The notes: generated from the sequence alone by a model not told the origin. A stretch of 64,000 nt of DNA from an uncultured Clostridia bacterium (GCA_964548075.1 CAZJQQ010000004.1:115872-179871), one strand, 5' to 3'. Counted from the first letter of the stretch, positions 1-14,757 are shown. Translations and numbers: made by a program.

Positions 1-939
1 CCAGCGCGTGCGAAGCGCTTTCAGGACGCCTGCAGGATGTCGCAGGTAAGTTGCCATAGGCGGCAGATAGGACAACGGCGGGTATCGCTCCGGAAAGGGC
101 CGGTCCCAGTTCTTCATCACATCGCGCACCAGCCATCGCGGCAGGCGTTTCGCTCTGTGCGCCGCCGGCGTGTCATCGACTCGAGCTTCCAGCAACTGGT
201 GCGCGAGACCGATCGCACATGCGACCCAGTCCGCCTGACGCTGGTCGCTTCCAAGGCACCGCTCCCAGTCGAAGCTCGCGGACCGCGACTCAACCGCTGC
301 CGCAATATCACAAAGCCACATCGGCCGCCACGCGCTATGCCGCAAGAAGTGCGTGCACAGGATGCGAAGCTGGTCTTCCGAACCCAACAAACGAAACTCT
401 GCTTCGCCAAGCCGCGCAGGCTCGGACCGCGTCATCAATTCATCCAGGCTCAGATCGTCCAGCTTGCCGAATCCCTCGTGCACGTCAACACTGTACTTTC
501 TTGCATCGGGACTCCGGAGTACCGAAACCGCCTTCTGATACTGGTCAGGCGAGAAGCACAAGTCTATGTCACCGTAAGGCCGCAGTCCCTCCTCCGGATA
601 CAAGCGCGCAACCGCCCAGCCTTTCACCAGCACCGGCTCCACTCCGGCTGAGTTCAGCAGCAAGATGACTTCTTCGATTTCGGTCTTGTGAATTGCGGCC
701 TGGAGGGAATGAAGTTGATACGCGGATCTCAATTGGTCCGCAGCCTCGCACTCGCTCAAGCTGCTGTCGCGAATACGCCACCAGCCAAGCGCCGCCGCGC
801 CTGACTGCAAGAGTAGCGGCGCGATTAGCTCAAGTTCTTCGGCAGAAATGTTCGGATCGGGAGAGACCGCGCGCCAACTGCCCGCGAGAAAGTTCGCAAC
901 GACACGGCCGAGCGATTGAGTTGCGTCTGTCTCAGTCAT
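1..939 (-). CDS. Nucleotidyltransferase family protein (NTP_transf_5-like), 5'-partial at window edge; start ATG at 939
   Basis: Minus-strand frame reads MTETDATQSLGRVVANFLAGSW...VEPVLVKGWAVARLYPEEGLRPYGDIDLCF..., which matches the uncharacterised nucleotidyltransferase family motif (PxLxKG...YP....R...DIDLxx). It is open to the window start. The plus-strand ORFs 37..651 and 219..668 are Arg-rich antisense artefacts. Confidence 0.6.
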   Translation of the reverse strand, partial: MTETDATQSLGRVVANFLAGSWRAVSPDPNISAEELELIAPLLLQSGAAALGWWRIRDSSLSECEAADQLRSAYQLHSLQAAIHKTEIEEVILLLNSAGVEPVLVKGWAVARLYPEEGLRPYGDIDLCFSPDQYQKAVSVLRSPDARKYSVDVHEGFGKLDDLSLDELMTRSEPARLGEAEFRLLGSEDQLRILCTHFLRHSAWRPMWLCDIAAAVESRSASFDWERCLGSDQRQADWVACAIGLAHQLLEARVDDTPAAHRAKRLPRWLVRDVMKNWDRPFPERYPPLSYLPPMATYLRHPAGVLKALRTRW

Positions 940-970
940 TGCACTTGTGCAGCCAGGGTTCTGCGTCCAG

Positions 971-1019
971 GCTCAACGCTAAAAGAAAACGGGCTGAGGT
1001 TCAGATGATAACTGAACCT
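971..1019 (-). terminator. Rho-independent terminator for the 1053..5957 gene
   Basis: Perfect hairpin gggctgaggttcag/ctgaacctcagccc at 984..1019. On the minus strand it is followed by GTTTTCTTTTAGC. Confidence 0.5.
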
Positions 1020-1052
1020 CAGCCCGCCAGTCAGGACGTGGTTACGGCGATG

Positions 1053-4000
1053 CTATTTGAGTCTCATCGCCGGATCGCCGAACAAGATCCACGAACGACG
1101 CACATCCGCATCAGTAACAGCTAGCTTCGCTCGCGCCGCCGCCTCGCCAACAGTGATCGAGCCGCCGCCGAACAACAGCCGATACAACTCCTGGTTCAAC
1201 GTCTCCTGCTCCCCGGGCAAGCACTGCGCCGACGACGCCCACACCGCCGCCGCGCCCCCGTTCGCCTTGAGCAGCGATTCCGCCAGGCTATCCAGCACCG
1301 GATCGTCGAAGTAGCCGTTAAGGCACGTCATCATCACAAAGAACGCGAGCTTCTGGCTGTTGGTCATGCTCGCCGCATCGCCGTTGGTCAGAATGTTGCC
1401 GCGCCACTGGTTCACCGAACCGTGACCATTGTAGTTCACGATCGTCTTCCCCTGATTGATCGCCGCCAGTATCTGGCTCTTCACCGTTGCGTCATCGCCC
1501 GACCCCCGCACCACTTCCTGCACCTGCATCCCTCCAGGCACCAGCGGCCTCAACGCTGCCATGACACCCGCGAAGTTGTATCCGTCATTCAGGTCCGCTG
1601 TCAGCAGCACCGAGTTGGACCCCGTCGAGCTTTCGTAGCTCACGATCTTTCCGACTAGCGCCGCCGACTCAGCTGCATTACGCGCCGGCAACCGCCCGCT
1701 TGCTATATCCGGCAATCCCGTCCCCTGGAAGTCCACGAACCAGTCGTCGCTCGCCGCTTCCATGTACGCGCTGTCGTATAGCTTCGTCGGCACTAGATCG
1801 CTGTCCCCGTACCCCAGATAGTTCTTCGGGTCATAGCTCGAATCGCCCGCAAACACCACAAAGCGCGGCAGCCGCCTCCAGTTGTCCCGGGTGAACCTAA
1901 GGAAGTCCTTGATCGATTGTGGCGACTTATTGCCGTAGCTGAACTCGTCATACAGGTCTTCCACATCCACTACCGCCACCGACAACCCCTGGCTTTCCCT
2001 CAGCGCCTTCAGCGGTCCCAGGCTCCCCTTTAGTTCCTGCGTCGTGATCACAACGTAGTCGTGCTGCAGACCCTTCTCGTGCCAGTTCGACGGCGCGTTG
2101 GCCTTCGCCGTTGCGCTCATCGCCCTCGCCCCGGTGAACGCCAGCAGCGATCTCGTCCCAATGCCCGGCGGCGTCAGCGTGATGCTCGAATTGGACTTCG
2201 ACCCGCCGATCGTCCCGGTCAGTTCCTGCGGGCTACTCACGTCCGTAACATCCATGACCCGAACATCGGACGACGTGAATCCCCCGATGGTCACCGGCTG
2301 CCCGGCCTTAACCACCGCGCGCAACTGGTTGCTGTCAGCCGTCAGAGTATGCGTGTAAGAAACCCGCACCGTGTCCATCAGGCTGATGTCGGCGCTGCCC
2401 CCCTGCGCGATCAACTGCACAGTGTTCACTCCTTCGCGCAATTGCGACTGGGCGATCGGGAAGCTCGCCTTTCCGCGCTCCTGACCATTAAAGCTCACCG
2501 TGCCCACTGCGACTCCGTTGAGCGTCACTCGCGCCTGATGCGGCGTCAGCGTCACTCCTTGCAGGTACACGGCAAGCGTCGCCTGTGACAATGAGCTCGA
2601 TGCGACGTTGGTCAACGTCAACGACTGGTCCACCGCCGTGCTCCCAACCACTGGCCCAAAGAAGTTTTCCGCATCCCCGTTGCGCAATCCCGCGAAGTAC
2701 AACGTGCGGTCCTTGCGCTCGACTGCGGCGGCGAAACTCCCGGGCGCGTTTAGACCCCCCGCCGTCTTCGTTGCTTTGATGCGCGCGCCGTTTTGCCCTC
2801 CGGCCACCAGCCAGTAGACGTGGGTGCTGGTCGCCGCGCTGTTCAACCCTAAGCCGTAGAACTCGATGCTATCGCTAGGATCGAGCTTGCCGTCCAGCTC
2901 GCCGTTGACGATGATCGGCACTTGCGCGCCGTCGACATACAGTTGCAGGTTTCGCGCATCCACGTTTGCACTCAAGCCTGCGGCAACCAGGTCTTGCTGC
3001 TTGATGCGATACCAGCCCTCTTTGTTGACTCCAAGCTTGACGGCTTGCTGACCCGCCAGATCGGTCTGTTGTTTGATTGCTGCAGGCGTGAGGCTCGCGA
3101 TTTCTGCCTGACGCTCAACCACCGTCGAGCCTTGCCCGAGTGTCATCTGCGCCGAGGCTAGACCTATGCGGGTCAGCAAGACTGACTGCTCGACGCTCGG
3201 CGCCTTGCCGCCTTTCGCGTCGAGGCTGATGGGTCCAGTCCACGTGCTCTTGCCGCTGAGGTCAACGTCTTCGAGCCAGTAGCGCGTCCCCGCCTGTGTC
3301 AACTGGTCGCCCCACGCGTAGGACTTGCCGGCCGTGAGGGCAACCTTGGGTCCGGTCACAAGCGCGGACCCGGCGATCGTCTGCGGATTGATCTTCGTAC
3401 GCTGCCCGTTCGCCTCGCGATAGACGTTGTAGCCGAGGTTGTCTACTTCATAACCCGAGCTCCACCGCAACAGCACCCGCCCGTCATCGAAACCTTCGGC
3501 AGTGAATGTCTTCACCTTTGCCTCTGTGGGAGCGGTGCAAGAGGGAAACTTGAACGAGCCGATGCGCGTGTTCCAGTTCCTGGTCGCGTCGGCGCCGACG
3601 TTGGTGAAGTACATGCCGGCGTACCAGAAAGTGCAATCGTCGGCCGGGTCAACACTCATCGACGTGTAATCGCCCCAGCGATGAATGGGGGTGCCGCCGG
3701 CAGTAGTGGTTTGCGGGCCGGTGCCGGCGATCAGTTGGACTTCCGTCTGCGGCAAGTTATTGAGCGGATCGCCAACGAGACGCCCGGAATAGGCAATGCT
3801 CGGGAAGTTCGGGCTGGTTACGTTGGAGGTGCTGTAGCCGAGCGCCACGTTGCCAACGTGGTCGGCGGCGATACTCGCCATCCAGCGATAGAGGGTGGTA
3901 TCCGGGGCGTAAATCTGGGTTTGAACCATCGTCGTTGAAACGACGCCGCCGGTCACATTGAGTTGCGCCCACTGCGGGCGGGCCGTGGCGCCGGCAGACC

Positions 4001-5957
4001 GCGTCGTTTGCGTCACCCACAATGATTCGACGCCGCCGACGATGCGATATTGCACCTTTTGCATCAGTCGGTCGTCGAGCGTATCAAGATTATGTGACGC
4101 GGTCGCTGGCGGCGGCTGCGGCACCACATCCCCCAGGCTTAAGCCGTAGGCGGCTTGGGTGATAATGGTTGCCGCGCCAAGCGTGCCCCCGCCGGCACAA
4201 TTAGCGCCCGGTGTAAACTTTCTCACTTCGAATGCGAATATGCTTGTCGACTCTGATACAAAGTAGTTCGGAGTGTTGGCTGGGGGTACGTTGCCGACTC
4301 CTCTCGCGCCGCTGATGTTGCTGGGGATCATGGTAAAGATAGTGCTAGTAGGGATGAAGCCGATTGCCCCTCTGAGCACGGCGCCACTCTCCATATCCGA
4401 TTTGTTGAACGAGGCAAACAGCACGCCTGAGAACGCCGTGCCATTGGCGCCGAATTCGTTGGCCGCCATGTAAAGGCAGCCGTCGTTCCAGTTGCCAAAC
4501 TTGGGATAGTCGTTGAGCGTCGTCGCAGGGACTGCGCCGGTATCCATTTGCACGGCATAAAACCACCAGCCGCCGGCGACCGGATCGTTGGTCTTGGAAA
4601 TCGCGAAGCATTGATAATACGGCGCGATCGGATTGCCGCCGGACGTAGCAAAGGCAAAGTTGGTGAGAATCCAGCGATCCCCAAACTGATCGTAGACCAC
4701 CACCGGGTCGCCAAAATTATTGGCGTTGCACGGCGTCCCGATTCCTTGCCCGGCCCACAACGAATTCTCTGTAAAGCTCGCGAGCAGCGTGCCGGTCTTG
4801 CTGTAGATGGCAAAGGCATCGTTGACCGACAGGATGTAGTGGTTTAAGCCGACATCGCCGTTGACGTCCGGCGGCCAGCCCGCGCCTGCCTGTCCCCCCG
4901 TAACTGCACTGTTAAAGCTCAACCCCGCAAAGTTTTGAGTCGGACTGGGCATTGGGGCCAGCGGGATGTTGTTGGGAGTGTTGCTTACCGGAGCCGCTGC
5001 TCCTGCCGCGACCTTTTCGGGATTCAGCTCCTTTTCCACTTCGACTTCGATCTTTGGTATGGAAGGCACAGCGGGCAGGTCGCGCACATCGCCGTTATAT
5101 TCGGAGGGCCTGATGCCTGCTATGTCATAAGTGATGCCGTCCATACCCTTCGCTGCCAGCTCTTCTTTGGAAAGCCCTTTGATCTGCGGCTCCGGCGATG
5201 CAGTTGTCGCGGCAGCGCCGTTCAGTGTTCCGGCGGCCGCAAGCCTTCTTCTCTCTGCTCGCTCCTCGTGCTCGCGCGCTTCTTCCTTATTCGCATCGTG
5301 CGATTCGGCTGACGCCACTACCGCGCCTTTTGCCGTCTGTGCATTCGCGTCTGCCTTCGCCGATTCGGCAGCCGTTGGCGATGACGGCTTGACGACCTCC
5401 GGATTGCGGCGGATTGAGAACACCGGGTTCCTCTCCGGAGTCACAGGCGGCGGCAGAGGCGAGGGTCGGAAGACGCCCTGGCCTATCGCGAGTGCGTTCG
5501 CCGGGCTCTGACGCTGCGCTCTTTGCGCGAGCCCTTTGCGTCCCAGCAGCTTTGGCTTCGCGGTCCTTGCTAACTCGCGTATTCGCGAGCCGACGAGTTT
5601 ATTGCTCGCCCTGATTCCGGCGGCGGATTTCTGCGCGTCATGGCCGAGCACGTCAGCGGCCGGGCTGTTGGGCTTTGCCTCTTGCGAGCCGGGCGGTCCC
5701 GCAGCCGTGGACGCTGCTCCCGATGTTGGCGCTACGCTGCTTGCGGCCAGTGATGTCGCAGCGTGTTGCCCAGCAACAGTCGGTTGAGAAGATCTTTTCA
5801 TGAAGAGCAGACTAATGCCTGTTGCGAGGATGGCAAGGCATAGCGATACAAGCATCGCGCGCGAAAAGTTATTCTTGCGATTGCTCGATTCCCCCGGGAG
5901 GCCGGCCAATTTCGGGGCGTTCTTGATACTCATTGATGCTTCTCCTCTACTGCTCAC
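1053..5957 (-). CDS. Giant membrane-anchored surface protein (1634 aa) with a C-terminal peptidase C25 (gingipain-like) domain
   Basis: N-terminal signal-anchor (AMLVSLCLAILATGISLLF), then low-complexity A/S/P-rich linkers and a conserved beta-rich middle region. C-terminal about 400 aa resemble a C25 cysteine peptidase: ...VNYNGHGSVNQWRG (His) and FFVMMTCLNGYFDDP (Cys). Paralog of 6324..12509. Confidence 0.8.
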   Translation of the reverse strand: MSSRGEASMSIKNAPKLAGLPGESSNRKNNFSRAMLVSLCLAILATGISLLFMKRSSQPTVAGQHAATSLAASSVAPTSGAASTAAGPPGSQEAKPNSPAADVLGHDAQKSAAGIRASNKLVGSRIRELARTAKPKLLGRKGLAQRAQRQSPANALAIGQGVFRPSPLPPPVTPERNPVFSIRRNPEVVKPSSPTAAESAKADANAQTAKGAVVASAESHDANKEEAREHEERAERRRLAAAGTLNGAAATTASPEPQIKGLSKEELAAKGMDGITYDIAGIRPSEYNGDVRDLPAVPSIPKIEVEVEKELNPEKVAAGAAAPVSNTPNNIPLAPMPSPTQNFAGLSFNSAVTGGQAGAGWPPDVNGDVGLNHYILSVNDAFAIYSKTGTLLASFTENSLWAGQGIGTPCNANNFGDPVVVYDQFGDRWILTNFAFATSGGNPIAPYYQCFAISKTNDPVAGGWWFYAVQMDTGAVPATTLNDYPKFGNWNDGCLYMAANEFGANGTAFSGVLFASFNKSDMESGAVLRGAIGFIPTSTIFTMIPSNISGARGVGNVPPANTPNYFVSESTSIFAFEVRKFTPGANCAGGGTLGAATIITQAAYGLSLGDVVPQPPPATASHNLDTLDDRLMQKVQYRIVGGVESLWVTQTTRSAGATARPQWAQLNVTGGVVSTTMVQTQIYAPDTTLYRWMASIAADHVGNVALGYSTSNVTSPNFPSIAYSGRLVGDPLNNLPQTEVQLIAGTGPQTTTAGGTPIHRWGDYTSMSVDPADDCTFWYAGMYFTNVGADATRNWNTRIGSFKFPSCTAPTEAKVKTFTAEGFDDGRVLLRWSSGYEVDNLGYNVYREANGQRTKINPQTIAGSALVTGPKVALTAGKSYAWGDQLTQAGTRYWLEDVDLSGKSTWTGPISLDAKGGKAPSVEQSVLLTRIGLASAQMTLGQGSTVVERQAEIASLTPAAIKQQTDLAGQQAVKLGVNKEGWYRIKQQDLVAAGLSANVDARNLQLYVDGAQVPIIVNGELDGKLDPSDSIEFYGLGLNSAATSTHVYWLVAGGQNGARIKATKTAGGLNAPGSFAAAVERKDRTLYFAGLRNGDAENFFGPVVGSTAVDQSLTLTNVASSSLSQATLAVYLQGVTLTPHQARVTLNGVAVGTVSFNGQERGKASFPIAQSQLREGVNTVQLIAQGGSADISLMDTVRVSYTHTLTADSNQLRAVVKAGQPVTIGGFTSSDVRVMDVTDVSSPQELTGTIGGSKSNSSITLTPPGIGTRSLLAFTGARAMSATAKANAPSNWHEKGLQHDYVVITTQELKGSLGPLKALRESQGLSVAVVDVEDLYDEFSYGNKSPQSIKDFLRFTRDNWRRLPRFVVFAGDSSYDPKNYLGYGDSDLVPTKLYDSAYMEAASDDWFVDFQGTGLPDIASGRLPARNAAESAALVGKIVSYESSTGSNSVLLTADLNDGYNFAGVMAALRPLVPGGMQVQEVVRGSGDDATVKSQILAAINQGKTIVNYNGHGSVNQWRGNILTNGDAASMTNSQKLAFFVMMTCLNGYFDDPVLDSLAESLLKANGGAAAVWASSAQCLPGEQETLNQELYRLLFGGGSITVGEAAARAKLAVTDADVRRSWILFGDPAMRLK

Positions 5958-6094
5958 GCAAGCGCTAGTTCATCCAGCCCTGCGTGCATATTAAAGTGAC
6001 TGGTTCAATTTCGACCCGGGGGGAAGGTCTTTGCGGTATTAGTCATCTTCGGCGACCGCCGCGCTGATTGTTCTGCTTCCGATTAACCGCCCGC

Positions 6095-6123
6095 CATATT
6101 ATCCAGCTTTGACTTTGACATCA
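6095..6123 (-). promoter_or_regulatory. Sigma70-like promoter for the 1053..5957 gene: TTGATG, 17-nt spacer, TAATAT
   Basis: Minus strand reads TTGATGtcaaagtcaaagctggaTAATAT about 135 nt upstream of the start codon. The same arrangement is conserved upstream of the paralog. Confidence 0.4.
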
Positions 6124-6240
6124 AGAGTGTGGCGGGAAGAGCACGGAAGGGAAATCAGGAGTAGCGTGTCTGATCTCATTGTAAAGCGTTCTGCGACCAT
6201 GATAACGAATATAGCATCAGCTCATGAGCGGCGAAGAACG

Positions 6241-6270
6241 CGGGCCGGAGATCAATTGAATCCCCGGCCC
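6241..6270 (-). terminator. Possible terminator hairpin after the 6324..12509 gene
   Basis: gggccgg agatcaattgaatc ccggccc forms a 7-bp GC stem. There is no clear T-tract on the minus strand, so this is weak. Confidence 0.25.
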
Positions 6271-6323
6271 TCAGTAGTTCCTTTTTGCTGGGTGCGATCC
6301 AGCCGCACTACCAATCGCAGCAG

Positions 6324-9300
6324 CTACTTGAGCTTCATACTTGGATCTCCCAGCAGAATCCACGTTCGCCTCACGTCGCCGTTTGTGACCGCGGCCTTCG
6401 AACGCGCCGTCGCCTCGCCTATCGTTATCGGAGTTCCATTGAAGATCATCCCGAACACTTGCTGATTCAGAATCGCTTGAATGTCTGGCGTGGTCATCCC
6501 CGACGATCCCCACACCGCAACGGCTCCCCCATTGGCTTTCAGCAAGCTTTCGGCGAGACTGTCCAGCGCCGCGTCCTGAAAGTAGCCGTTCAAGCACGTC
6601 ATCATCACAAACATCGACAACTCACCGGCGTTAGTCAGCCCGGCGGCGTCCGCCGAAGTCAGGATGTTGCCTCGCCATTGATCCACCGACCCGTGACCGG
6701 TGTAGTTGACGATGATCTGCCCGCGATTGATCGCGTCGATCAGTCTCGCTTTCGCGGTCGCATCGTCCAGGTGAGCTCGATCCACTGTCTCGACTCGGAT
6801 GTTGGGCGGAATGAAGCCTCTCAACAGATTGCTCGCACTCCCAAAGTCGTAAGTGTCGTTGTGATCGTTCACCAACAGCAACGTGCCGGCTGACGGCTGG
6901 CCGTCGTAGCTGGCGATCTTGGTGGCAAGGCGCAACGCTTCGGTTGCCGAACGCGCCGGCAAGCGGCCAATAGCCATGTCCGGCAAGCCGTCGCCGTTGA
7001 AATCAACCAACCAGTCGTCGGAAGCCGTCTCCATGTACTGCGTGTCAATCAGTTTGGTCGGCACCAGATCCGAGTCGCCGAACCCCAGATAGTTCTTCGG
7101 ATCGAAGCTCGCATCGCCGGCCAGCATCACGAAGCGCGGCGCTTTCTTCCAGGTGGTGGCGGCATACGCCAGGAAGTCTTTCACTGCTTGCGTCGTCTTC
7201 TGACCGTAGCTGAACTCGTCGTAGACATCCTCTATGTCCACGACCGCCACCGAATATCCCTGCTTCTGCCTTAATGACACCAGCGAGCCGAGCGATGCGA
7301 AGAACTCGCGGCGAGTGAGTATCACGAGGTTCGCACCGTTGCCGGGCTGGCGCCACGACGATGGGCTGTTGGGCGCAAGGCTGACGGGTTTCGACATATC
7401 GCCCGCAATCGCCAGCAGCGTGCGCGGCTCCGCGCTTTGAGGGTTGAGCGACACCGCGTAGCCGCCGCTCTTCTGCTGTTGCACGGTCCCGATCAGTTCC
7501 TGCACCGCAGCGGGATTGGTGATGTCGAGCACGCGAATGGCAGGGCTGCTGAAGCCGTCAACCGTGACCATCTGTTTCCCGGCGACGGTGAACCGCAGCG
7601 CGTTGCCTTCAGCCGTGTAGCGATGCGGGTACGTCAGCCGAATATAGTCAACGAGACTGATATCGCTCGGTCCCCCTCGCGAAGTGAGGCGCAAGACATT
7701 TTGTCCTTCCCTCAACTGCGGCGCCTGAACGTTGAATCGTCCGACGCCTTCCGACTGGCTGTTGAAGGAAATCGTGCCCGCGTACGAACCGTTCAACTCG
7801 ACCGTGACATTGTGCGCGGCGGTAGTGACGCCTTGGAGAGCTACTTCCAGCGTTGCACCGTCGCTCGATCCCGTTTCGACCCGCGACAGCGACAGCGATT
7901 GATCCACCGGGTCGCGCGCTATGACCGAACCAAAGAAGTTCTCCTTGTCGCCGTTGCGCAACCCGGAGAAGTAGATAGAGTGGTCACGGCGCTCAACCGC
8001 GTACGGGAAGGTGCCGCCGGTGGCATCCGGACCCGCAGCATTGTTCTGACCGATGCGCTTGCCCGGTTGATCGCCGGCCGTGAGCCAGTACGTGCGCAAG
8101 TTCGTGTAAGCCGAATCTACGCCGATCCCGTAGAACTCGATGGCCGAGAGCCGGCCGTCTTTTTCGGTGACAACGTTGATAGGTTGTTCCTGCCCGTCCA
8201 CTGAAAGCCGCAGCAGGCGCGGGTCAACGCGCGAATCGAGTCCGGCTGCTGCCAGCTCGGATTGTGAGACTTGATACCATCCCTCCCGCTGCACTGAGAT
8301 TTTGACGGCTGACTGACCGGCGATGATCGCCTGACTCGCCAGTCCCGCGATGGTCATCGGTATCTGCGTGGTTCTCGGCTCGAGCGGCGAGGTTGTGCCG
8401 TCCGCGTCCGCGCTGCCAGTGAGTTCGCCTATCAGCTTCGACTGTGGTTCGACGTCGGCGGACGATAACTTCTTGACGCCACCGGTAGTCCCGCGCACAG
8501 GCCCGTACCATATGCTGGAGCCGTCGAGATCGATCGACTCAAGCCAGTACATCGAGTCGGCATTGCTGCCCTGCGAGTCGCGCCACACGTAAGACCGGCC
8601 CGCGCCAAGCACAGTCCTGGCGCCGACAAAGAGCGCCGAGCCGGCGACGAAGTCGGGCGTCACTCGAACGCGTTTGCCGGCGTCTTCGCGGTAGATGTGG
8701 AAGCCGAGGTTGGCGACCTCGTATCCGGTTTGCCATCGTAGGAGCACGCCGCCATTCGGACTGTTTGGAGTCGCGGCATAGCCGTCGGCTGTGAACCAGT
8801 TCAGCGTGGCGTCGGTCGGCGCGGTGTCGTCGAAGCAAACTGTTACATCATTGACGGTTGGCGTTACCGTGCTGTCGGTCGTGGACAGGTAAGCCTTGTA
8901 CTTCAGATAGCGATTGCCGTTGAACTGAGTGAGCGAAGCGCCGCTGGTGGTAAAGAAGGTCGCGGCGGTGCCGTCGGGGCCAACAAAGTTGAATGGGCCT
9001 ACATCGCTGGTGCTGGCCGCCACCTGGAACTGGAGGGTGGTGTTTGCCGGGACGGTGGCATTCCACGACAGCGTGGGCCAGGTGGGAACCAACCCGACGG
9101 CCGGGTTCGCGTCCTTCAGTGAGGAGACGAACGTGCCTGAAGGCGTCGTCATGAAAGTCCTGAAGCCAGCATCGGTTACAACGCCGCCAGTCAGGGGAAC
9201 GGTCCAGACCGTACCGCTCGTAGCTCCGTTGACCCGGTCACCGCCCGCGTAGAGGCTGGCGCCGGTCGTGGAACTGCCGGTACGGGTGATCGCGTAGGTT

Positions 9301-12300
9301 CCTAGGGAGGGGTTCGCGGTCGGACGTATTGCCAACGCGTACTGCGTGCCCGCCGTCAGCGTCGCCGGGCTGGCGAAGTTTCCGGTGTAGAAGATCGCGG
9401 CGCCGCTGGAGAAGCCCGTGATCGTCGCGGACGCGAGGTCGGCTCCCGTGGGCAGGCCACCGCTGGTCGCCCTCACCGAGAGCGTGAGGTTGGGCGTTGT
9501 GCCCGTGCAACCGCTACAGAACAGGTTGATGTCGGCCCTTGTGAGCTGACCTGTGACGGTCGGCGTGAACGTCTGTCCACCCCAGGTCGTGATGGTGATG
9601 CCAAGCCCGAAACCACCGATGGCCTCGTTCAGTTGGTCAAGGTTCTGCTTCGAGAGGAGAATGTTGCCCGCGCTGGTCGTGAGGTCGCACTTCGCCGGAG
9701 TTCCCACGGAGAAGTCAGCCTGCGAGGTATCCGTCAGGCACCCCGTCACAGCCGCCGCGGTGAGCGCGAAGTTGTTCGTCGACGTCCCGCCGTCGGGAAC
9801 AACAACGGGCGTGGTCGTAGCGGAGTTATAGCCCAGAGCGCTGGCCGAGATGCTCGGATACGTCCCTGCCGGTATGTTCGTGAAGGAATAAGTGCCGTTG
9901 ACAGCCGTCGTCGTCATCCGGCTGCCGAACGCGACGCTCGCACCGCTGATCGGCGAGCCGCCCGGAGTCACGGTCACTGTACCGGACACGGTTCCGTTGC
10001 CGATTGCAGTACACGAGGGAAACTTGAAGGAGCCGATCCGCGTCAGGTCATTCAGCCCGTCCGTGGCGTAATACTCCTGCGTATACCAGAAGGTGCACCC
10101 ATCGGTCGGATCGAGGGTCATTGCACTGTAGTCACCCCAGCGGGTACAGGTGCCACCGCACGTGCCCACTTGCGTACCAGTGCCTTGAATGAGATCGACC
10201 TCCGTCTGCGGAAGCGAGCTAAGCGCATCGCCGAACAATCGTCCCGCGTAACGGATCGCGGGTTTCATCGTGCTGTTCGAGGCACTGTAGCCGATCATCA
10301 TATCGCCCGCGCGATCAACTGCTAGACTGGGCATGAAGCGGCTCACGGTGCTGTCGGGGCTATGCGTGGAGACCTGCGTCGGAGCTGCCGCGATGGTACC
10401 GCCCGTGACAACGGTCTGGTACCAGCGGACCCCGGCTTGTCCAGCTACGCTGCCCAGGACGGTGTGCGAGTCCCAGAGCGACTCAACGCCGCCGATGTTC
10501 GTGTACTGGTTCTGCATCATCGACCTGGTGGGGAGCGTGTCGAGATTGTTGCCGCCCAGGGAAGGCACGGTAGCCGGGGGACCCACCCAGCTCGTGCCTG
10601 CAATCGAGGTCGTGACCCCGGTGAACGTCGAGAGAAAGACATTGTTCCAATCGACGTGGAACTTCCAGATTGCCAACGCATTGGTATATGTGCCGGTTCC
10701 GACGAAGTAGTTCGGTGTCCCGGCCGGCGGCGTGCCGGACTGGAGTCGGGCGTTGCTGGGAATAATCGTGAAGACTGTGCCTCCATTCTGGTCCAGCCTT
10801 GGCGCGTCGAACGAAACAATCTGCGGGTTTGCCGCCCCGGCATACATCTGCGCCTTGTTGAACGCCCACTGTCGACTGAAGATGAACGATCCGCTGGTCG
10901 CGCCGAATCCGAACATGTTCGCGTTCATATATATGCCGTCAGGCCAGACGCCCAACTTCGGATAGTCGTTCAGCGCGTCTGGGACTTGGATCGAGTAGAA
11001 GTTCCACCCGCCCACGACCGGGTCGCCGGTCTTCGAGACCGCGAAGCATTGGAACGCACCGGGCGGGTTCACCACGTTGCCTCCGCTAAGCTGGAATGCG
11101 AAGTCCGTGATAATCCAGCGATCCTCAAAGGTGTCGTACAGAACCACGGGATCGCCAAAGTTGTCAGTGTCGCACAAGTTTCCAAAGCTGCCCTGGCTCA
11201 TGAACGTGTTGAAGGTGAAAGCCGCCAACTGAGTACCGGTTTTGTTGTAGATACCAATTGACGTGTTGACCGTCTCAATGTAGTGGTTTGGACCCACGTC
11301 GCCGTTTGTATCTGGCGGGTGGCCGGCGCCCCAGGTGTTGAAATCGAGGCCGTCGAAGTTCGCGATCGGTGAAGGGGCCGGAGCGGCCGGTGCAACTTTC
11401 GGCGCGGCAGGCTTAGACGGCGTTGGGGGTTTCGGTCCTATGAAGAGCGGCTCAAACTCCGGGGCTTCCTTCTCGGGCCGCTCCTTCTTGACCGGTGGAG
11501 TCCTTGGCAAATCTCTAAGGTCGCCATTGAATTCTTTCGCCTTCACCAGATGTAATTCTTTGGGCTTGAGGTTAATGGTTTGGACCGTTGCACTAACTGC
11601 TCGCTCCTGCGTGGGCCCGACCGAACTTCCGTCTTTGGTCGGCGCGGCTGCAATTGCTGAACCTGCGGCAGGAGCAGGATTGAGTTTTCCATTAGCGGTT
11701 TTGGGGGTTGTATCGCCGTTTTCAGCGCTCAAAGTTATCTCACCGCCGGTACCCTCCGCGGATGCGAGCTTCTCTGCCGGCAGATTTTCTGCATCAGCGC
11801 GCTCTGCGGTCGCTGAGACAGGAAGGCCTGTTTGCTCAACTGAACTTCTTTCCGATCGCCCTTGCTGCGCATCAAGTGAAGTCGCGGATGATTGTAATCC
11901 CGTATCAGCCGATTCAGATGACGCTTGCTTGCTGGTTGGGTCCGGCTTGCGGAGGATTGAGAATACCGGGTTCCTTCGCAGGGGCAAAGGCGGCGGCAGG
12001 GGCGAGATTCGGAAGACGCCCTGGCCTACTCCCGGTGAAATGGCCGTGTTCTGACGCTGCGCACGAGGTATTTGCGCGAAACCTTTGCGTTCTAGCTGCT
12101 GTAGCTTCGCGGTTCTTGCCAACTCGCGTATTCGCGAGCCGAGGAGTTTAGCCCGCGCCCGGCGTGCGGCGGCGGATTTCTGTGCGCCATTGCCAAGTAT
12201 GCGTTGAAATGCAGTGGCCGGGCGAGGGGGTCTTGCCTCCTTCGAGCTAAGGGGTCCCACAACTGCAGGCGCAACGGCTGATCTCTGCTCTGCGCCGCTT

Positions 12301-12509
12301 GCTGCCGGTGAAGTCGCGGCGTCTGGCTGGGCACCGGGCAGTTGAGAAGATCTTTTTATGAAGAGCAGGCTGATGCCTGTTGCTAAGATGACAAGGCATA
12401 GCGATACAAGGATCGCTCGCGAGACGTTATTCGTTCGACGACTTGGCTCAGCCGGCGCGCCGGTGACATTCGGTGTGTTCTTAATAGTCATTGGTGCTTT
12501 CTCCTTCAC
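6324..12509 (-). CDS. Giant membrane-anchored surface protein (2061 aa) with a carboxypeptidase-regulatory-like beta-sandwich and a C-terminal peptidase C25 domain
   Basis: N-terminus is nearly identical in pattern to its paralog (TIKNTPNVTGAPAEPSRRTNNVSRAILVSLCLVILATGISLLFIKRSS). Contains GTYSFTNIPAGTY (CarboxypepD_reg-like). C-terminal C25 motifs: VNYTGHGSVDQWRG and MFVMMTCLNGYFQD. Ends ...WILLGDPSMKLK, compared with ...WILFGDPAMRLK in the paralog. Confidence 0.8.
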   Translation of the reverse strand: MKEKAPMTIKNTPNVTGAPAEPSRRTNNVSRAILVSLCLVILATGISLLFIKRSSQLPGAQPDAATSPAASGAEQRSAVAPAVVGPLSSKEARPPRPATAFQRILGNGAQKSAAARRARAKLLGSRIRELARTAKLQQLERKGFAQIPRAQRQNTAISPGVGQGVFRISPLPPPLPLRRNPVFSILRKPDPTSKQASSESADTGLQSSATSLDAQQGRSERSSVEQTGLPVSATAERADAENLPAEKLASAEGTGGEITLSAENGDTTPKTANGKLNPAPAAGSAIAAAPTKDGSSVGPTQERAVSATVQTINLKPKELHLVKAKEFNGDLRDLPRTPPVKKERPEKEAPEFEPLFIGPKPPTPSKPAAPKVAPAAPAPSPIANFDGLDFNTWGAGHPPDTNGDVGPNHYIETVNTSIGIYNKTGTQLAAFTFNTFMSQGSFGNLCDTDNFGDPVVLYDTFEDRWIITDFAFQLSGGNVVNPPGAFQCFAVSKTGDPVVGGWNFYSIQVPDALNDYPKLGVWPDGIYMNANMFGFGATSGSFIFSRQWAFNKAQMYAGAANPQIVSFDAPRLDQNGGTVFTIIPSNARLQSGTPPAGTPNYFVGTGTYTNALAIWKFHVDWNNVFLSTFTGVTTSIAGTSWVGPPATVPSLGGNNLDTLPTRSMMQNQYTNIGGVESLWDSHTVLGSVAGQAGVRWYQTVVTGGTIAAAPTQVSTHSPDSTVSRFMPSLAVDRAGDMMIGYSASNSTMKPAIRYAGRLFGDALSSLPQTEVDLIQGTGTQVGTCGGTCTRWGDYSAMTLDPTDGCTFWYTQEYYATDGLNDLTRIGSFKFPSCTAIGNGTVSGTVTVTPGGSPISGASVAFGSRMTTTAVNGTYSFTNIPAGTYPSISASALGYNSATTTPVVVPDGGTSTNNFALTAAAVTGCLTDTSQADFSVGTPAKCDLTTSAGNILLSKQNLDQLNEAIGGFGLGITITTWGGQTFTPTVTGQLTRADINLFCSGCTGTTPNLTLSVRATSGGLPTGADLASATITGFSSGAAIFYTGNFASPATLTAGTQYALAIRPTANPSLGTYAITRTGSSTTGASLYAGGDRVNGATSGTVWTVPLTGGVVTDAGFRTFMTTPSGTFVSSLKDANPAVGLVPTWPTLSWNATVPANTTLQFQVAASTSDVGPFNFVGPDGTAATFFTTSGASLTQFNGNRYLKYKAYLSTTDSTVTPTVNDVTVCFDDTAPTDATLNWFTADGYAATPNSPNGGVLLRWQTGYEVANLGFHIYREDAGKRVRVTPDFVAGSALFVGARTVLGAGRSYVWRDSQGSNADSMYWLESIDLDGSSIWYGPVRGTTGGVKKLSSADVEPQSKLIGELTGSADADGTTSPLEPRTTQIPMTIAGLASQAIIAGQSAVKISVQREGWYQVSQSELAAAGLDSRVDPRLLRLSVDGQEQPINVVTEKDGRLSAIEFYGIGVDSAYTNLRTYWLTAGDQPGKRIGQNNAAGPDATGGTFPYAVERRDHSIYFSGLRNGDKENFFGSVIARDPVDQSLSLSRVETGSSDGATLEVALQGVTTAAHNVTVELNGSYAGTISFNSQSEGVGRFNVQAPQLREGQNVLRLTSRGGPSDISLVDYIRLTYPHRYTAEGNALRFTVAGKQMVTVDGFSSPAIRVLDITNPAAVQELIGTVQQQKSGGYAVSLNPQSAEPRTLLAIAGDMSKPVSLAPNSPSSWRQPGNGANLVILTRREFFASLGSLVSLRQKQGYSVAVVDIEDVYDEFSYGQKTTQAVKDFLAYAATTWKKAPRFVMLAGDASFDPKNYLGFGDSDLVPTKLIDTQYMETASDDWLVDFNGDGLPDMAIGRLPARSATEALRLATKIASYDGQPSAGTLLLVNDHNDTYDFGSASNLLRGFIPPNIRVETVDRAHLDDATAKARLIDAINRGQIIVNYTGHGSVDQWRGNILTSADAAGLTNAGELSMFVMMTCLNGYFQDAALDSLAESLLKANGGAVAVWGSSGMTTPDIQAILNQQVFGMIFNGTPITIGEATARSKAAVTNGDVRRTWILLGDPSMKLK

Positions 12510-12649
12510 TGCTCAGGTAAGCCATAATCCATCCGGCCCTGCATGCATCTTGAGCGGCTGGTTTCAATTCGAACGGGGGCGCCGTCAACGTCTGTCAGAT
12601 ACTTCCCCGGCCGAAGTTTGATCGTTCTGCTTGTGAATTGCCGCCCGCA

Positions 12650-12678
12650 ATACTATCCACCTTTCACTTTGACATCAA
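12650..12678 (-). promoter_or_regulatory. Sigma70-like promoter for the 6324..12509 gene: TTGATG, 17-nt spacer, TAGTAT
   Basis: Minus strand reads TTGATGtcaaagtgaaaggtggaTAGTAT. It is a duplicate of the promoter and leader at 6095..6123. Confidence 0.4.
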
Positions 12679-12763
12679 GGGGAGGACGGGGAAATAAACG
12701 AAAGAGAATCGGGGAATATCGTGTCTGGATATGTTCACGAGCAGGAGGATGGCGGGAGACCGG

Positions 12764-13240
12764 CTAGATGAACACAAATCGATCCGCTAGAGCGAAATTG
12801 ACCAACGAGCAGAGGCCAATCGTGATCAGGTTCGCGGCATAAGGGTTGACCTTGAGCACGCTCACCAGTATGAACATAAGGGCTAGATTGCCAATCAGTG
12901 ACATCGCTCCGTTCGTTGCGTTGAACCGCAGCAGTGCAAGCGTGCCATGAGAACTTGCACGGTCAGCCCACGTCCATCTTCTGTGCCAAACGAAATTGTT
13001 CAGCACCGATGCCTCGACCGCCAATGCGGTCGCCATTAGATAGTGCATTCCTCCAACGCGCATCAGAACTGCGAGCGTCACCGTTTGCACGATGACGCCG
13101 CCAGCTCCGACCGCGCTGAACTTTGCGAACCGATGGAAGACTCCCTGTGAGCGCGCACGACCCGCTCGCCTTGCGACTTCATTCCGGGATATGTGCGCGC
13201 TCTCTTCGCGGGCTTCGGCAACCGGGTGAAAGCAGTCCAT
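12764..13240 (-). CDS. GtrA family membrane protein
   Basis: FAKFSAVGAGGVIVQTVTLAVLMRVGG...NNFVWHRRWTW...NFALADRFVF is the typical GtrA signature. The ATG overlaps the stop of the upstream gene by 1 nt (TGATG). Confidence 0.7.
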   Translation of the reverse strand: MDCFHPVAEAREESAHISRNEVARRAGRARSQGVFHRFAKFSAVGAGGVIVQTVTLAVLMRVGGMHYLMATALAVEASVLNNFVWHRRWTWADRASSHGTLALLRFNATNGAMSLIGNLALMFILVSVLKVNPYAANLITIGLCSLVNFALADRFVFI

Positions 13241-13950
13241 CAAACTCTCTCCGCGCGATACAGCGTTATCGTGTTTCGCGTGACGGACACCACCAGCACG
13301 ACTGTCATCAGCGCCATCGCGACAACTGCGCCGACATCGAAGAACAAGTACCGGTCGCCAAATGCGTGCGTGGCCGGATGTGACATTGCTCTGATATTGC
13401 CGATCGCGAGCAGTATCCTTAACTCGGTCGGACTGAACTTATAAAAAGAGAGCTTGAAAGTTCCAATCGTATAAGTCGCAAGGTAAACATCAATCGAGAT
13501 CATGAAATAAACCACCAGCACCGCGAGAGCGATCGTCCACGTCATGTAGCCCGACAGCGCCAAGCCGCAGATGATGAACAAAATGCCGAACGCGTCGATG
13601 ATGTGATCCACGTAGAACCCGTACCGAGGCCGCTGCTTGTTCCGCGTCCGGGCGAGCGTGCCGTCAAGGCTGTCGCCAAACCAGTTGATCGCCAGGCACA
13701 GGTTGACGATCAGAAGCGCCGGCGCCCACCACTTCGCGAGCGCGTAACACACGCCCGCCACGAACATCGCGCCGAAGCCGAGCAGTGTCAGGTGGTCTGG
13801 CTTGACCCACGGCGGCATGTTTCGCGCAAGCCAACTCAGACAGACCCGCTCGAGCGGCGCGAGCAGGCTTGTCTGCTGCCTGACCGCGCTCTTGAATTCC
13901 GGAGTCAGGATCGGCCCTACTGCGGGATTGCTAACGGATGTTTGGTTCAT
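13240..13950 (-). CDS. CDP-alcohol phosphatidyltransferase family protein
   Basis: Motif DHLTLLG....GDSLDGTLAR....D...D with multiple TM helices. Start chosen at MNQTSVSNP (ATG at 13950), which overlaps the upstream stop as ATGA. The longer ORF up to 14199 is Arg/Cys-rich and not protein-like. Confidence 0.75.
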   Translation of the reverse strand: MNQTSVSNPAVGPILTPEFKSAVRQQTSLLAPLERVCLSWLARNMPPWVKPDHLTLLGFGAMFVAGVCYALAKWWAPALLIVNLCLAINWFGDSLDGTLARTRNKQRPRYGFYVDHIIDAFGILFIICGLALSGYMTWTIALAVLVVYFMISIDVYLATYTIGTFKLSFYKFSPTELRILLAIGNIRAMSHPATHAFGDRYLFFDVGAVVAMALMTVVLVVSVTRNTITLYRAERV

Positions 13951-14384
13951 ACTTGCCTCGCCATATTCTTCACTGCAGCGTAAGCGTCGAGCGGTGACAG
14001 CAAAACGATGATCAACCAGATGGGAATCGAGATCAGGGCGAGGATCACTCGCTTGATAAAGGCGCTTTGATGTTCCGTCGAAGGCGCCGCCAGGGCGCCG
14101 GTGACCACAGCATTGACGAGCGGCCCCGAAATCCTGCGATACACATCCGTCCGGGCGCCGGCCGCTAGCGCTATGGTTGCAAACAACGCCGCGCTGCATG
14201 CGGCGGCTCCGGCCGGCAGATCCTGCATCGGATTAGGGCCTGCGCCCTCCTCGCCGGGCTGCCGCGCGCCGCACCTTCTGCAAAACTTGTCGCGTTCGAG
14301 CAGCCCCGAGTCGCACTCGGTGCAAGCCTTAACGGCAACCGTTCTCGCTTCTTGTTGCAGCTCATCCATAACAACCACCCGCAT
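13947..14384 (-). CDS. Zinc-ribbon domain membrane protein
   Basis: CTECDSGLLERDKFCRRCGARQ zinc ribbon followed by two or three TM segments. Translationally coupled (ATGA) to the CDP-alcohol phosphatidyltransferase gene. Confidence 0.45.
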   Translation of the reverse strand: MRVVVMDELQQEARTVAVKACTECDSGLLERDKFCRRCGARQPGEEGAGPNPMQDLPAGAAACSAALFATIALAAGARTDVYRRISGPLVNAVVTGALAAPSTEHQSAFIKRVILALISIPIWLIIVLLSPLDAYAAVKNMARQV

Positions 14385-14553
14385 CGAAGTGTTGTGCGTC
14401 CCCGATGCCTCAAGTCCACCGCCTGCAAGGGCAACCGTGATGCCACAAGCATTCTGTCAAAAGGGCGCCGAAAAACGGCCAGATTTGACAAAGACAGATG
14501 CGATGAGAGAAGAGCGAGCGCAGTAAAAATCTGACACTCGGCTCAGTCTGGTT

Positions 14554-14661
14554 GATGCGTGAGGCGTGATGCGTGATCCGTGAAACGTGATAGATGGTTG
14601 TTCGCGCCGCCTATTCTGGTCACGGATCTCGCATCACCCTTCACGGATCTCGCATCACGTC
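14554..14661. promoter_or_regulatory. Operator-like array: three copies of an 18-nt motif (one inverted, two direct) in a divergent promoter region
   Basis: gtgatgcgTgatccgtga at about 14567..14584. tcacggatctcgcatcac appears twice at about 14620..14637 and 14641..14658. It lies between the divergently transcribed 13947..14384 operon and the 14758 gene. Confidence 0.4.
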
Positions 14662-14757
14662 TTGATTATTGCCATTGCAAACAGCGGTTTGTTACTATCC
14701 TCGTTAGCTGAGGAGTCCGCAGCTACAGCTCCCGTATCCGTGCCGGAGGAAGAATCA

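Follow-up and report, generated by a model that had tools for sequence, protein, structure and literature searches.

The window (the whole 64,000-nucleotide stretch of DNA that was analysed) includes, close to its left end, two adjacent genes, named A and B, that code for large multi-domain proteins ending in a peptidase module of the C25 family, referred to below as the C25 cassette. The features of this locus and of its immediate surroundings are:

1..939, minus strand: partial NTP_transf_5 gene (Pfam PF14907, E 1e-27), next in the array and running off the window edge
988..1028, minus strand: intrinsic-terminator-like hairpin, 17-bp stem and T run, directly past the A stop codon
1053..5933, minus strand: gene A from its probable ATG, 1626 aa
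1056..3533, minus strand: C25 cassette of A, aa 809-1634, with beta-sandwich domains first and the C25 catalytic domain last, at the C-terminus of the protein
1059..2057, minus strand: Peptidase_C25 domain of A, aa 1301-1633 (Pfam E 2.6e-79, 267.6 bits, model positions 1-374 of 374)
1422-1424 and 1323-1325, minus strand: codons of the A catalytic residues His1512 and Cys1545 (codons checked)
3534..5144, minus strand: head domain of A, aa 272-808, predicted seven-bladed beta-propeller, ending in ...FKFPSCT
5145..5798, minus strand: low-complexity stalk of A, aa 54-271 (Ala 21%, Ser 10%, Pro 9%)
5799..5855, minus strand: putative signal-anchor of A, MLVSLCLAILATGISLLFM, aa 35-53
6096..6124, minus strand: promoter-like element upstream of A (TTGATG, 17 nt, TAATAT)
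6324..12491, minus strand: gene B from its probable ATG, 2055 aa
6327..8825, minus strand: C25 cassette of B, aa 1229-2061, with the Pfam C25 domain at 6330-7325
6693-6695 and 6594-6596, minus strand: codons of the B catalytic residues His1939 and Cys1972
8826..9758, minus strand: B-specific 311-aa insert, aa 918-1228
9759..9992, minus strand: CarboxypepD_reg domain (PF13620) of B, aa 840-917
10008..11546, minus strand: head propeller of B, located by tblastn
12357..12413, minus strand: putative signal-anchor of B, ILVSLCLVILATGISLLFI, aa 33-51
12650..12678, minus strand: second copy of this promoter-like element, ahead of B (aligned with the A copy)
12764-13243, minus strand: GtrA-like gene upstream of B (Pfam; context only)
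13240-14199, minus strand: CDP-alcohol phosphatidyltransferase-like gene upstream of B (Pfam; context only)

The first-pass annotation had recognized A and B as adjacent paralogous ORFs of 1634 and 2061 aa. Both of these GTG-started ORFs are intact exactly as described (1053-5957 and 6324-12509, minus strand), and all the sequence patterns quoted for them (GDVG.NHY, FGDPVV.YD..DRW, RWGDY..M..DP.D.CTFWY, NY.GHGS and MMTCLNGYF) are found in A and B. Residue numbers of A are counted on the 1634-aa ORF. The ATG codons at 5933 (A) and 12491 (B) have GAGGAG and GAAGGAG, respectively, just before them and are the likely starts, giving proteins of 1626 and 2055 aa that agree with the database proteins P0001 (1626 aa) and P0017 (2055 aa), which match A and B at 100%. 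The DNA upstream of gene B between 12510 and 12690 is non-coding. In a BLASTP comparison the C-terminal 840 aa of the two proteins were 50% identical and the N-terminal 860 aa 44% identical. A chance finding can be dismissed; homologues with E = 0 number in the hundreds. Full-length orthologues of A show 59-74% identity, and B has orthologues of its own at 50-58% identity, which points to an old split; judged from these alignments A and B are anciently diverged paralogues, and a recent tandem duplication was rejected.

The proposal that both proteins start with a hydrophobic signal-anchor is plausible. The hydrophobic segments have mean Kyte-Doolittle values of 2.4 (19-mer, A) and 2.8 (B), and 26 of 33 residues are alike between A and B when the flanks are included. 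In A the segment is preceded by about 26 residues, five of them Lys or Arg, counting from the probable start Met9. By hydropathy and sequence only, the N-side is Lys/Arg-rich and the sequence KRSSQ comes directly after the hydrophobic helix. This segment is plausibly a membrane anchor, and it might alternatively be a cleaved signal peptide. Taken alone, an N-terminal anchor in the inner membrane of a diderm would make a periplasmic protein unless the protein is released. Pfam searches with the stalk of A returned nothing beyond a weak hit to Talin_R4 (E 0.015) that, at 16 bits, stayed below the cut-off of 27.

What had been described as a long beta-rich central region is instead a domain in its own right (about 535 aa), predicted to be a seven-bladed beta-propeller, that belongs to a widespread separate family. 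The predicted fold consists of seven four-stranded blades closed by the N-terminal strand, and includes a conserved N-terminal hairpin (PSEYNGDVRDLP). Six Cys residues are invariant in the family, and the invariant positions in A also include D364, D417, D483/Y484, R638, R691, R760/D763 and Y764. The head of B is a diverged subtype with 43% identity to that of A; it retains 72 of the 87 family-invariant residues and has lost the counterparts of A Glu397, Arg638 and the Cys494/Cys587 pair. Invariant cysteines of which two are missing together in B are consistent with disulfides, and hence with export. At E≤1e-30 the propeller family comprises 3335 clusters from many phyla, Acidobacteriota, Chloroflexota, Verrucomicrobiota, Proteobacteria and Actinomycetota among them, with 40-60% identity across phyla. 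The domain matched no Pfam family at E≤10 and no NCBIfam model at E≤1, its family profile found no PDB sequence at E≤1, and when 40 members were searched at E≤1 the 25 commonest Pfam families included none of the propeller type. Structural comparison brought up WD40-type folds, virginiamycin B lyase and YncE as seven-bladed comparators and, more weakly, the propellers of GH43, sialidases and ulvan lyase. Known propellers have just 5-13% sequence identity with the head, which has about 200 additional residues located in loops and in the N-terminal hairpin. Although the Foldseek 3Di ranking favours propellers of the glycosidase and lyase types (E 6e-7 to 1e-4), TM-scores of the head with glycosidase propellers are low (0.25-0.37), and given these weak PDB matches a GH43, sialidase or ulvan-lyase function was not adopted for the head. 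Clustering of the ORFs in 80 loci from many phyla disclosed no conserved partner gene near the propeller, the sole recurring neighbours being further propeller paralogues.

Two regions of the second protein have no counterpart in the first. The extra CarboxypepD_reg domain ascribed to the second copy was indeed found in B alone (Pfam E 5.3e-12; the score of 46.4 bits exceeds the cut-off of 32.3). The 311-aa insert that follows it is common to the B-type orthologues P0018, P0026 and P0028; scanning of a 904-aa stretch gave at most weak sub-threshold Pfam matches for this insert (e.g., CBM-like, E 0.04), and neither an NCBIfam match nor a credible PDB relative was found.

The conserved C-terminal unit of both proteins is an 827-aa cassette, rather than the module of about 400 aa first delimited, and homologues share 46-85% identity with it over 100% of its length. 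The C25 domain with the His and Cys motifs of clan CD reported at its end was recovered in full by HMMER searches against PF01364, with significant matches in both A (coordinates and scores above) and B (aa 1729-2060, E 6.5e-76, 256.4 bits, model positions 2-374 of 374); the Pfam gathering cut-off is 23 bits. Alignments made with phmmer and with profiles place His1512 and Cys1545 of A on RgpB His211 and Cys244 and on the GHGG and TC motifs of PorU. The dyad is intact in A and B, and across 50 cassette homologues with 46-85% identity neither the His and Cys nor the G-H-G and C..G residues around them vary. An AF2 model of the cassette (pLDDT 91, pTM 0.90) retrieved PorU (6za2) as the top Foldseek match (E 1.9e-28, about 800 columns), together with RgpB, Kgp and the clan CD protein separase, and the predicted fold agreed with RgpB at a target-normalised TM-score of 0.66-0.67 and about 3 Å. 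The C-termini of A and B are members of family C25, clan CD, and, as far as the model goes, have a caspase-like fold, as had been anticipated. The invariance of the dyad and its flanks, and full-length C25 domains at 256-268 bits, make it highly improbable that the domain has been kept as a structural or binding module only, in a non-catalytic scaffold or adhesin, even though the heads and partner domains are adhesin-like.

The gingipains RgpB and Kgp (MEROPS C25; PDB 1CVR and 4RBM), taken at first as the reference relatives, belong to the same Pfam family as the cassette, and the predicted catalytic fold can be superposed on theirs (target-normalised TM-score 0.57-0.67). Beyond the catalytic domain the differences are extensive. 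A and B lack the Propeptide_C25 prodomain, the IgSF domain, the haemagglutinin/adhesin region and the CTD, and their C25 domain is found at the extreme C-terminus. The propeptide family PF08126, whose presence had been considered, had no match at E≤0.01 in either protein in Pfam searches. The Arg/Lys specificity of gingipains has been related to the acidic S1 residue, Asp163 in RgpB, and to the Trp284 lid (PMC4357240). In a moderately reliable stretch of the profile alignment, the counterpart of Asp163 is an Ala in A, a Leu in B and a Thr in PorU, and Trp284 falls within an insertion that is absent from the cassette. With prodomain, Asp163, Trp284, IgSF and CTD all absent, membership of A and B in the gingipain subfamily was rejected.

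By sequence profile and predicted fold, the nearest characterised relative of the cassette is PorU, ahead of the gingipains, because the cassette family profile matches PorU with the better E value (1.7e-37, compared to 7e-21 for RgpB) and the Foldseek alignment with PorU extends over about 800 columns. The profile matches PorU residues 6-63, in the N-terminal domain, and 367-785, and the NCBIfam models of PorU and PorU2 align across the entire cassette, at model positions 2-733 of 1095. The scores for NF033707 (PorU; 253.7 bits for A and 230.2 bits for B) are under the curated equivalog cut-off of 420, and those for NF052324 (PorU2; 206.8 and 183.1 bits) are under the cut-off of 450. Orthology to PorU was rejected. 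The cassette is collinear with PorU from about residue 1 to 785, from the N-terminal beta-sandwich through the catalytic domain. The His/Cys dyad and an ADxNDG-type motif are common to both, and both lack an acidic residue where the gingipains have Asp163. The domain order, said to be reversed with respect to gingipains, must be seen in this light: the catalytic domain is in fact C-terminal, but this order is normal for the PorU-type branch of C25, since the PorU catalytic domain also comes after several beta-sandwich domains.

The differences from PorU are also considerable. Identity with the cassette is just about 14% in the structural alignment, and A and B have no counterpart of the last 370 or so residues of PorU, among them the T9SS CTD that PorU retains (A1054-Q1158). 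Both proteins stop 1-2 residues past the catalytic domain (GDPAMRLK* and GDPSMKLK*), with no match of the T9SS CTD or Por_Secre_tail type in either one and nothing after the catalytic domain, in agreement with the earlier remark that they are not targeted to the T9SS; about 20 ORFs scanned in the window included no T9SS components. On the other hand, A and B have parts not found in PorU, namely a predicted membrane anchor at the N-terminus, a stalk and the propeller head, and the cassette family has many paralogues per genome. The host of A and B is read as a soil acidobacterium, whereas the T9SS to which PorU belongs is a Bacteroidota system, described as restricted to that phylum (PMC11611037, PMC10202324).

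We favour, at a probability of about one half, the reading that A and B are exported, membrane-tethered, active endopeptidases of the PorU-type branch of C25 with a head that acts in targeting or as a second enzyme. These large proteins would be exported through Sec and seemingly tethered to the membrane by the N-terminus. From N- to C-terminus they would consist of the signal-anchor, a disordered Ala/Pro/Ser-rich stalk of 210-290 aa that may provide reach away from the membrane, an exchangeable head, and the constant 827-aa cassette. The latter would act outside the cytoplasm as a cysteine endopeptidase by means of His1512/Cys1545 in A and His1939/Cys1972 in B. Because the cassette is PorU-type rather than gingipain-type, Arg or Lys at P1 is probably not required, and cutting would probably be site-specific, in the manner of limited proteolysis. 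The head may be responsible for targeting or for a second, perhaps glycan-directed, activity.

A set of degradative enzymes would fit the many paralogues per genome at least as well as a dedicated processing enzyme. Judged from its homologues, the family is expanded in the Blastocatellia and Pyrinomonadaceae (Acidobacteriota), where proteins of the same family as A and B are found in MAGs under the automatic annotation 'C25 family cysteine peptidase' and differ from them in their heads (LTD, beta-helix, BNR-like, cohesin, Ig and others). Nothing of relevance turned up in the literature when C25, PorU-like or gingipain proteins were sought for Acidobacteria or Blastocatellia. The big paralogous expansion, the varied binding-type heads and the arrays are typical of secreted hydrolase families, the dyad is conserved, and cultured Blastocatellia favour proteinaceous substrates, all of which would suit a bulk nutritional protease, i.e., a broad-specificity extracellular or surface enzyme whose heads bind substrates or particles. 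We regard this as possible but somewhat doubtful: sequence, collinearity and fold all bring the cassette nearer to PorU than to the gingipains, the S1 Asp163, Trp284 lid, prodomain and IgSF domain of the gingipains are missing, and an N-terminal tether with no recognisable outer-membrane export signal argues against free secretion.

Propeller and cassette recombine independently. The cassette is the C-terminal end of the protein in 114 of 119 homologues, preceded by heads of 0-607 aa that include LTD, BNR-like, beta-helix, cohesin, Ig, BACON and P_proprotein domains. The propeller, in turn, forms the N-terminal part of hundreds of proteins whose C-termini differ (SLH, DUF4214, DUF11, Calx-beta, Big and others), and in P0019-P0027 the anchor-stalk-propeller part, at 62-75% identity, is followed by C-terminal SLH domains that replace the cassette. 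Genes for the cassette occur in arrays of two to five at the loci L083 and L085-L088, so variable heads and multi-gene arrays bear out the initial impression of a diversifying family. A and B themselves belong to a longer array that runs off the left end of the window: in the near-identical contig L088 the gene after A is an identical NTP_transf_5 gene, and two more C25-cassette genes lie beyond it. As to the genes on the other side, GtrA likewise precedes the arrays of L083, L086 and L087, and CDP-OH_P_transf also has a weak match in L083. PMT and GT2 genes were seen in L083 and L086.

This organization can be read in another way, with the cassette cutting near the head-cassette junction, in cis or on array neighbours, after which the head is moved to an envelope glycolipid or polymer, as a sortase would do, or is simply released. 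The cassette would thus be an alternative to other C-terminal anchoring modules, as in the exchange with the cell-wall-binding SLH domains on the same anchor-stalk-propeller part, and its position at the extreme C-terminus after interchangeable heads is what would be expected. PorU itself is both a peptidase and a transpeptidase, which cuts after T, E, D or N and before G, A or S and joins its cargo to A-LPS (PMC10202324). The junction is ...PSCT followed by AP... in A and B alike, but a cut between T and A fits a very permissive motif. The GtrA-like genes beside the arrays in the window and three other loci, and the CDP-alcohol phosphatidyltransferase and PMT/GT2 genes, count in the same direction; the synteny, however, may reflect mere close kinship of the compared loci, and the supporting points are all circumstantial. 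It is hard to see why a protein with an N-terminal tether would have to be anchored again, and an 827-aa module used a single time would be costly. On balance we consider such self-processing unlikely. In its most specific form, which we hold to be quite unlikely, the cassette would be a T9SS-independent PorU-type sortase working in cis that transfers the head, maybe a glycan-active enzyme, to an envelope glycolipid or polymer or releases it; the products of the GtrA, CDP-alcohol phosphatidyltransferase, PMT and GT2 genes nearby might synthesise the acceptor. If this were true, the arrays of heads would provide Blastocatellia with a variable surface coat that is attached covalently, and a new protein-sorting principle would exist outside the Bacteroidota.

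To our knowledge, what has been learned about C25 peptidases comes almost wholly from one oral pathogen, through its gingipains and PorU. The cassette family, previously known solely as automatic 'C25 family cysteine peptidase' annotations, is on sequence grounds real and has an intact dyad. It places a PorU-like multi-domain module in soil Acidobacteriota, with no T9SS signal, as a constant cassette behind swappable heads in arrays. If the cassette is active, as in the reading that we prefer, PorU-type enzymes would have a wider role, or else a major class of envelope proteases would exist in an abundant, poorly cultured soil lineage. The propeller family, with thousands of clusters and neither a Pfam or NCBIfam model nor a solved structure, is an annotation gap of its own.

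Downstream of the promoter-like element there is a conserved leader of about 150 nt. A search of Rfam for cis-regulatory RNA in this leader gave nothing but a sub-threshold match to Ms1 on the terminator hairpin, and RNAalifold analysis of three sequences indicated weak structure with no useful covariation. The promoter-like 29-mer is present in two copies in the window, compared to 0 expected by chance, and also precedes the orthologues of A at L087 and L088.

The window includes two adjacent giant genes, A and B, transcribed from the minus strand, whose products share one layout from N- to C-terminus: a hydrophobic anchor, an Ala/Ser/Pro-rich stalk, a β-propeller head, and a C-terminal unit, the cassette, that contains a C25 peptidase catalytic domain. 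A and B can be considered exported proteins that the predicted N-terminal segment would tether in the envelope, where the PorU-type cassette would cleave as a cysteine endopeptidase and the head would supply targeting or a second activity; this is the reading best supported, and we give it a probability of about 0.5. The two genes and the elements around them are the following.

1-939, minus strand: partial gene (gene start) for an uncharacterised nucleotidyltransferase, NTP_transf_5 (PF14907; Pfam E 1e-27)
1028-988, minus strand: strong terminator-like hairpin (17-bp stem and T run), directly after A
1053-5957, minus strand: ORF A, 1634 aa counted from an upstream GTG
6096-6124, minus strand: promoter-like 29-mer upstream of A
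6324-12509, minus strand: ORF B, 2061 aa counted from an upstream GTG
12650-12678, minus strand: promoter-like 29-mer upstream of B, nearly the same as that of A
12764-14199, minus strand: GtrA-like and CDP-alcohol phosphatidyltransferase-like genes, overlapping by 4 nt, directly upstream of B

The paired ORFs of 1634 and 2061 aa described in the first-pass annotation were recovered, as were all the motifs quoted there, in A and B alike; the part of its span from 12510 to 12690 is non-coding and lies upstream of B. ATG codons at 5933 (A) and 12491 (B), with GAGGAG and GAAGGAG in front, give products of 1626 and 2055 aa, exactly as long as the database proteins identical to them, P0001 and P0017. 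The proposed paralogy is borne out by BLASTP identities of 50% in the last 840 residues and 44% in the first 860, and the N-terminal anchors, reported as near-identical, match at 26 of 33 positions when their flanks are included. The split between A and B is old, since B has orthologues of its own: P0018 (50% identity over its full length) and P0026 and P0028 (57-58%). The additional CarboxypepD_reg domain is indeed present in B only (Pfam, residues 840-917, E 5e-12).

In both proteins Pfam recognises Peptidase_C25 in full length as the very last domain (A 1301-1633, E 2.6e-79; B 1729-2060, E 6.5e-76), and the chain ends 1-2 residues past it. Residue-level alignment places A His1512 and Cys1545 on RgpB His211 and Cys244 and on the GHGG and TC motifs of PorU; the counterparts in B are His1939 and Cys1972, and both catalytic residues are invariant throughout an alignment of 50 cassette sequences. 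The resemblance to gingipains had to be revised, however, because PorU is closer in sequence than the gingipains and the gingipain hallmarks are absent. PorU (6ZA2) was the top phmmer match of protein A in the PDB (E 6.6e-9), with RgpB and Kgp behind it, and a profile of 50 homologues of the cassette gave E 1.7e-37 for PorU, 7e-21 for RgpB and 1.3e-12 for Kgp, matching also the PorU N-terminal domain (residues 6-63). AlphaFold2 predicts A residues 808-1634 with high confidence (pLDDT 91, pTM 0.90); Foldseek comparison with the PDB aligned the model to PorU over about 800 columns (E 1.9e-28) and to RgpB with a target-normalised TM-score of 0.66-0.67 at about 3 Å, and also returned Kgp and separase, a further clan-CD enzyme.

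PorU, a Cys/His peptidase, cuts off T9SS C-terminal domains at T/E/D/N|G/A/S and then moves the cargo onto A-LPS by transpeptidation (PMC10202324; PMC11285876). Of the characterised enzymes this one is the nearest to the cassette, by sequence and fold as well as by the order of domains. The cassette differs in that A and B lack a T9SS C-terminal domain and in that the NCBIfam PorU and PorU2 models, which cover the C-terminal 540-670 residues or so of both, stay short of the curated thresholds (254 bits for A and 230 for B, where PorU requires 420). Gingipains have an S1 residue, Asp163, and a lid residue, Trp284 (PMC4357240). At the position aligned with Asp163, A has Ala, B has Leu and PorU has Thr, and Trp284 lies within an insertion that the cassette does not have; no Propeptide_C25 prodomain, IgSF domain or T9SS C-terminal domain was found in A or B.

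While the first-pass annotation had delimited a C-terminal module of about 400 aa, homologue coverage defines a conserved unit of 827 residues. With A 808-1634 as query, 379 proteins were obtained at E<=0.001, the best 120 of which are 46-85% identical, mostly across all 827 residues. Nearly all the named proteins among these 120 are from Blastocatellia MAGs and are automatically annotated as 'C25 family cysteine peptidase', so the C25 call as such is not new. The cassette forms the protein C-terminus in 114 of 119 homologues, preceded by a segment of 0 to 607 residues, and the heads differ widely (LTD, BNR-like, beta-helix, cohesin, Ig, BACON, P_proprotein, Laminin_G_3). Limited, site-directed cleavage by the putative peptidase is favoured over gingipain-like bulk digestion, because its nearest characterised relative is a site-specific signal peptidase and sortase and because the gingipain S1 determinants are missing. 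Our confidence in this is only moderate, since a family of degradative enzymes would account about equally well for so many paralogues carrying binding-type heads. An inner-membrane tether alone would hold A and B in the periplasm of a diderm bacterium.

The region previously described as a beta-rich middle is a distinct and widespread propeller domain. The BLASTP ends of 119 matches delimit it to about 535 residues, A 272-808. Hundreds of proteins have a domain 53-64% identical to it at the N-terminus, joined to C-terminal parts that have no relation to the cassette (SLH, DUF4214, DUF11, Calx-beta, Big_3_5, F5/8 type C, FG-GAP, fn3, HYR, TIG, PKD). No match was found for A 272-808 in Pfam at E<=10, for 40 family members in any propeller-type entry among their 25 most frequent Pfam families at E<=1, or for the domain in NCBIfam or, by sequence-profile search, in the PDB at E<=1. 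When 1.84 billion cluster representatives were searched exhaustively with HMMER, 3335 proteins matched at E<=1e-30 and 11757 did so at E<=0.001, and a one-genome-per-species scan confirmed at least 591 propeller stretches among 600 candidates. The best 80 of these loci come from many Acidobacteriota orders, Binatia, Verrucomicrobiota, Chloroflexota, Actinomycetota, Methylomirabilota, Beta- and Gammaproteobacteria (among them Tahibacter aquaticus DSM 21667, which is in culture) and one Syntrophobacteraceae MAG, and no neighbouring gene is conserved across them. Invariant Asp, Arg, Tyr and Glu residues stand at or just ahead of the first strand in most blades, and six invariant Cys suggest three disulfides. 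The propeller of B retains 72 of 87 family-invariant residues; it lacks counterparts of A Glu397 and Arg638 and of the Cys494/Cys587 pair, both members of which are gone together. The N-terminal position, strong conservation and trailing Ig-like, CBM-like or anchoring modules make a secreted catalytic or ligand-binding domain the candidate function.

The Blastocatellia paralogues P0019-P0027 share stalk and propeller with A (62-75% identity), P0020 and P0024 also the anchor, and have C-terminal SLH domains in place of the cassette; by this comparison C-terminal modules are swapped on an otherwise conserved protein. That one and the same type of head can carry either the cassette or SLH anchoring modules would also fit a cis-acting self-sortase or self-processing module, as would the strictly C-terminal position of the cassette, a T|A junction in A and B, and the glycolipid-type genes close by, but these points are all circumstantial and we consider such a role unlikely beside that of a tethered endopeptidase. 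A link of the GtrA and CDP-alcohol phosphatidyltransferase genes to the peptidases is possible. GtrA also lies upstream of the cassette arrays in three homologous loci (L083, L086, L087), accompanied in L083 and L086 by PMT, YdjC, radical-SAM and GT2 genes. No T9SS component was found among about 20 other window ORFs scanned, which are mostly housekeeping genes.

Orthologues of A (59-74% identity) adjoin further cassette genes with different heads, as listed here.

L083: 1976-aa fn3-containing protein without propeller, cassette 58.6% identical to that of B
L085: 2403-aa beta-helix protein
L086: 1986-aa protein and a protein of >1323 aa
L087: four other cassette genes around the A orthologue

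L088, a JGI contig near-identical to the window (B fragment 99.8% identical), has the order B, A, NTP_transf_5, a gene for a product of 2432 aa whose head is repetitive and beta-helix-like and whose cassette is 76.5% identical to that of B, and another C25 gene. Its NTP_transf_5 gene is the partial gene that leaves the window at the left end (1-939). Since NTP_transf_5 separates A, or its orthologue, from more C25-cassette genes in L088 and L087, the array continues to the left of the window. In the 2432-aa gene (L088 8667-16151) the C25 domain is incomplete (Pfam model positions 1-301 of 374) and a 58-aa ORF with the remainder follows; the gene is frameshifted or a pseudogene, unless the contig was misassembled here.

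The promoter-like 29-mer TTGATGTCAAAGTSAAAGSTGGATARTAT (TTGATG-17 nt-TAATAT/TAGTAT), of which none is expected by chance, includes a direct repeat, GTCAAAG/GTSAAAG, and is also found upstream of the A orthologues in L087 and L088. After it comes a leader of some 150 nt, which in A and B extends to 5933 and 12491 and is conserved between them and in front of those two orthologues; for this leader there was no Rfam match and no covariation supporting an RNA structure. Between about -240 and +535, counted from the ATG, the DNA of the two genes is 73% identical, above the 66.6% of the last 940 nt or so of coding sequence, which includes the catalytic domain; this suggests gene conversion, or a constraint or regulatory site. 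The sole Rfam match over window positions 1-15000, Ms1 sRNA, overlaps the hairpin after A (region 988-1074, minus strand) and looks like chance: it scores 26 bits, where the gathering threshold is 162.

A full-text literature search found no paper on the PorU-like cassette, its arrays or the propeller family. What is new is a PorU-like cassette independent of T9SS hallmarks, its use as a constant C-terminal module with exchangeable heads in multi-gene arrays, and the membership of the A/B head in a very large, cross-phylum, wholly unannotated family of seven-bladed propellers.

Just past the GtrA operon, the opposite strand encodes a pseudopilin-like T2SS-G domain protein (14587-15366), a TPR protein of 704 aa (15982-18096) and, at 18257-18928, a member of the CAP/cysteine-rich secretory family. 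A gene for a bacterial alpha-2-macroglobulin, a protease-inhibitor-type protein (31609-37671, plus strand; 2020 aa; MG2, bait region, A2M and bMG10 domains), lies some 19 kb away from the C25 genes, with an M28 peptidase gene (29392-31203, minus strand) as its neighbour. The stretch 38001-40849 has a G+C content of 0.50 against about 0.59 elsewhere, with two ORFs without Pfam match (37805-38872, plus strand; 39911-40849, minus strand), and may be foreign DNA. At 50465-52376 (plus strand), the gene for an AAA_21/AbiEii-like ATPase of 396 aa overlaps a 247-aa ORF behind it, and the two may form a small pair of the defence or toxin-antitoxin type.
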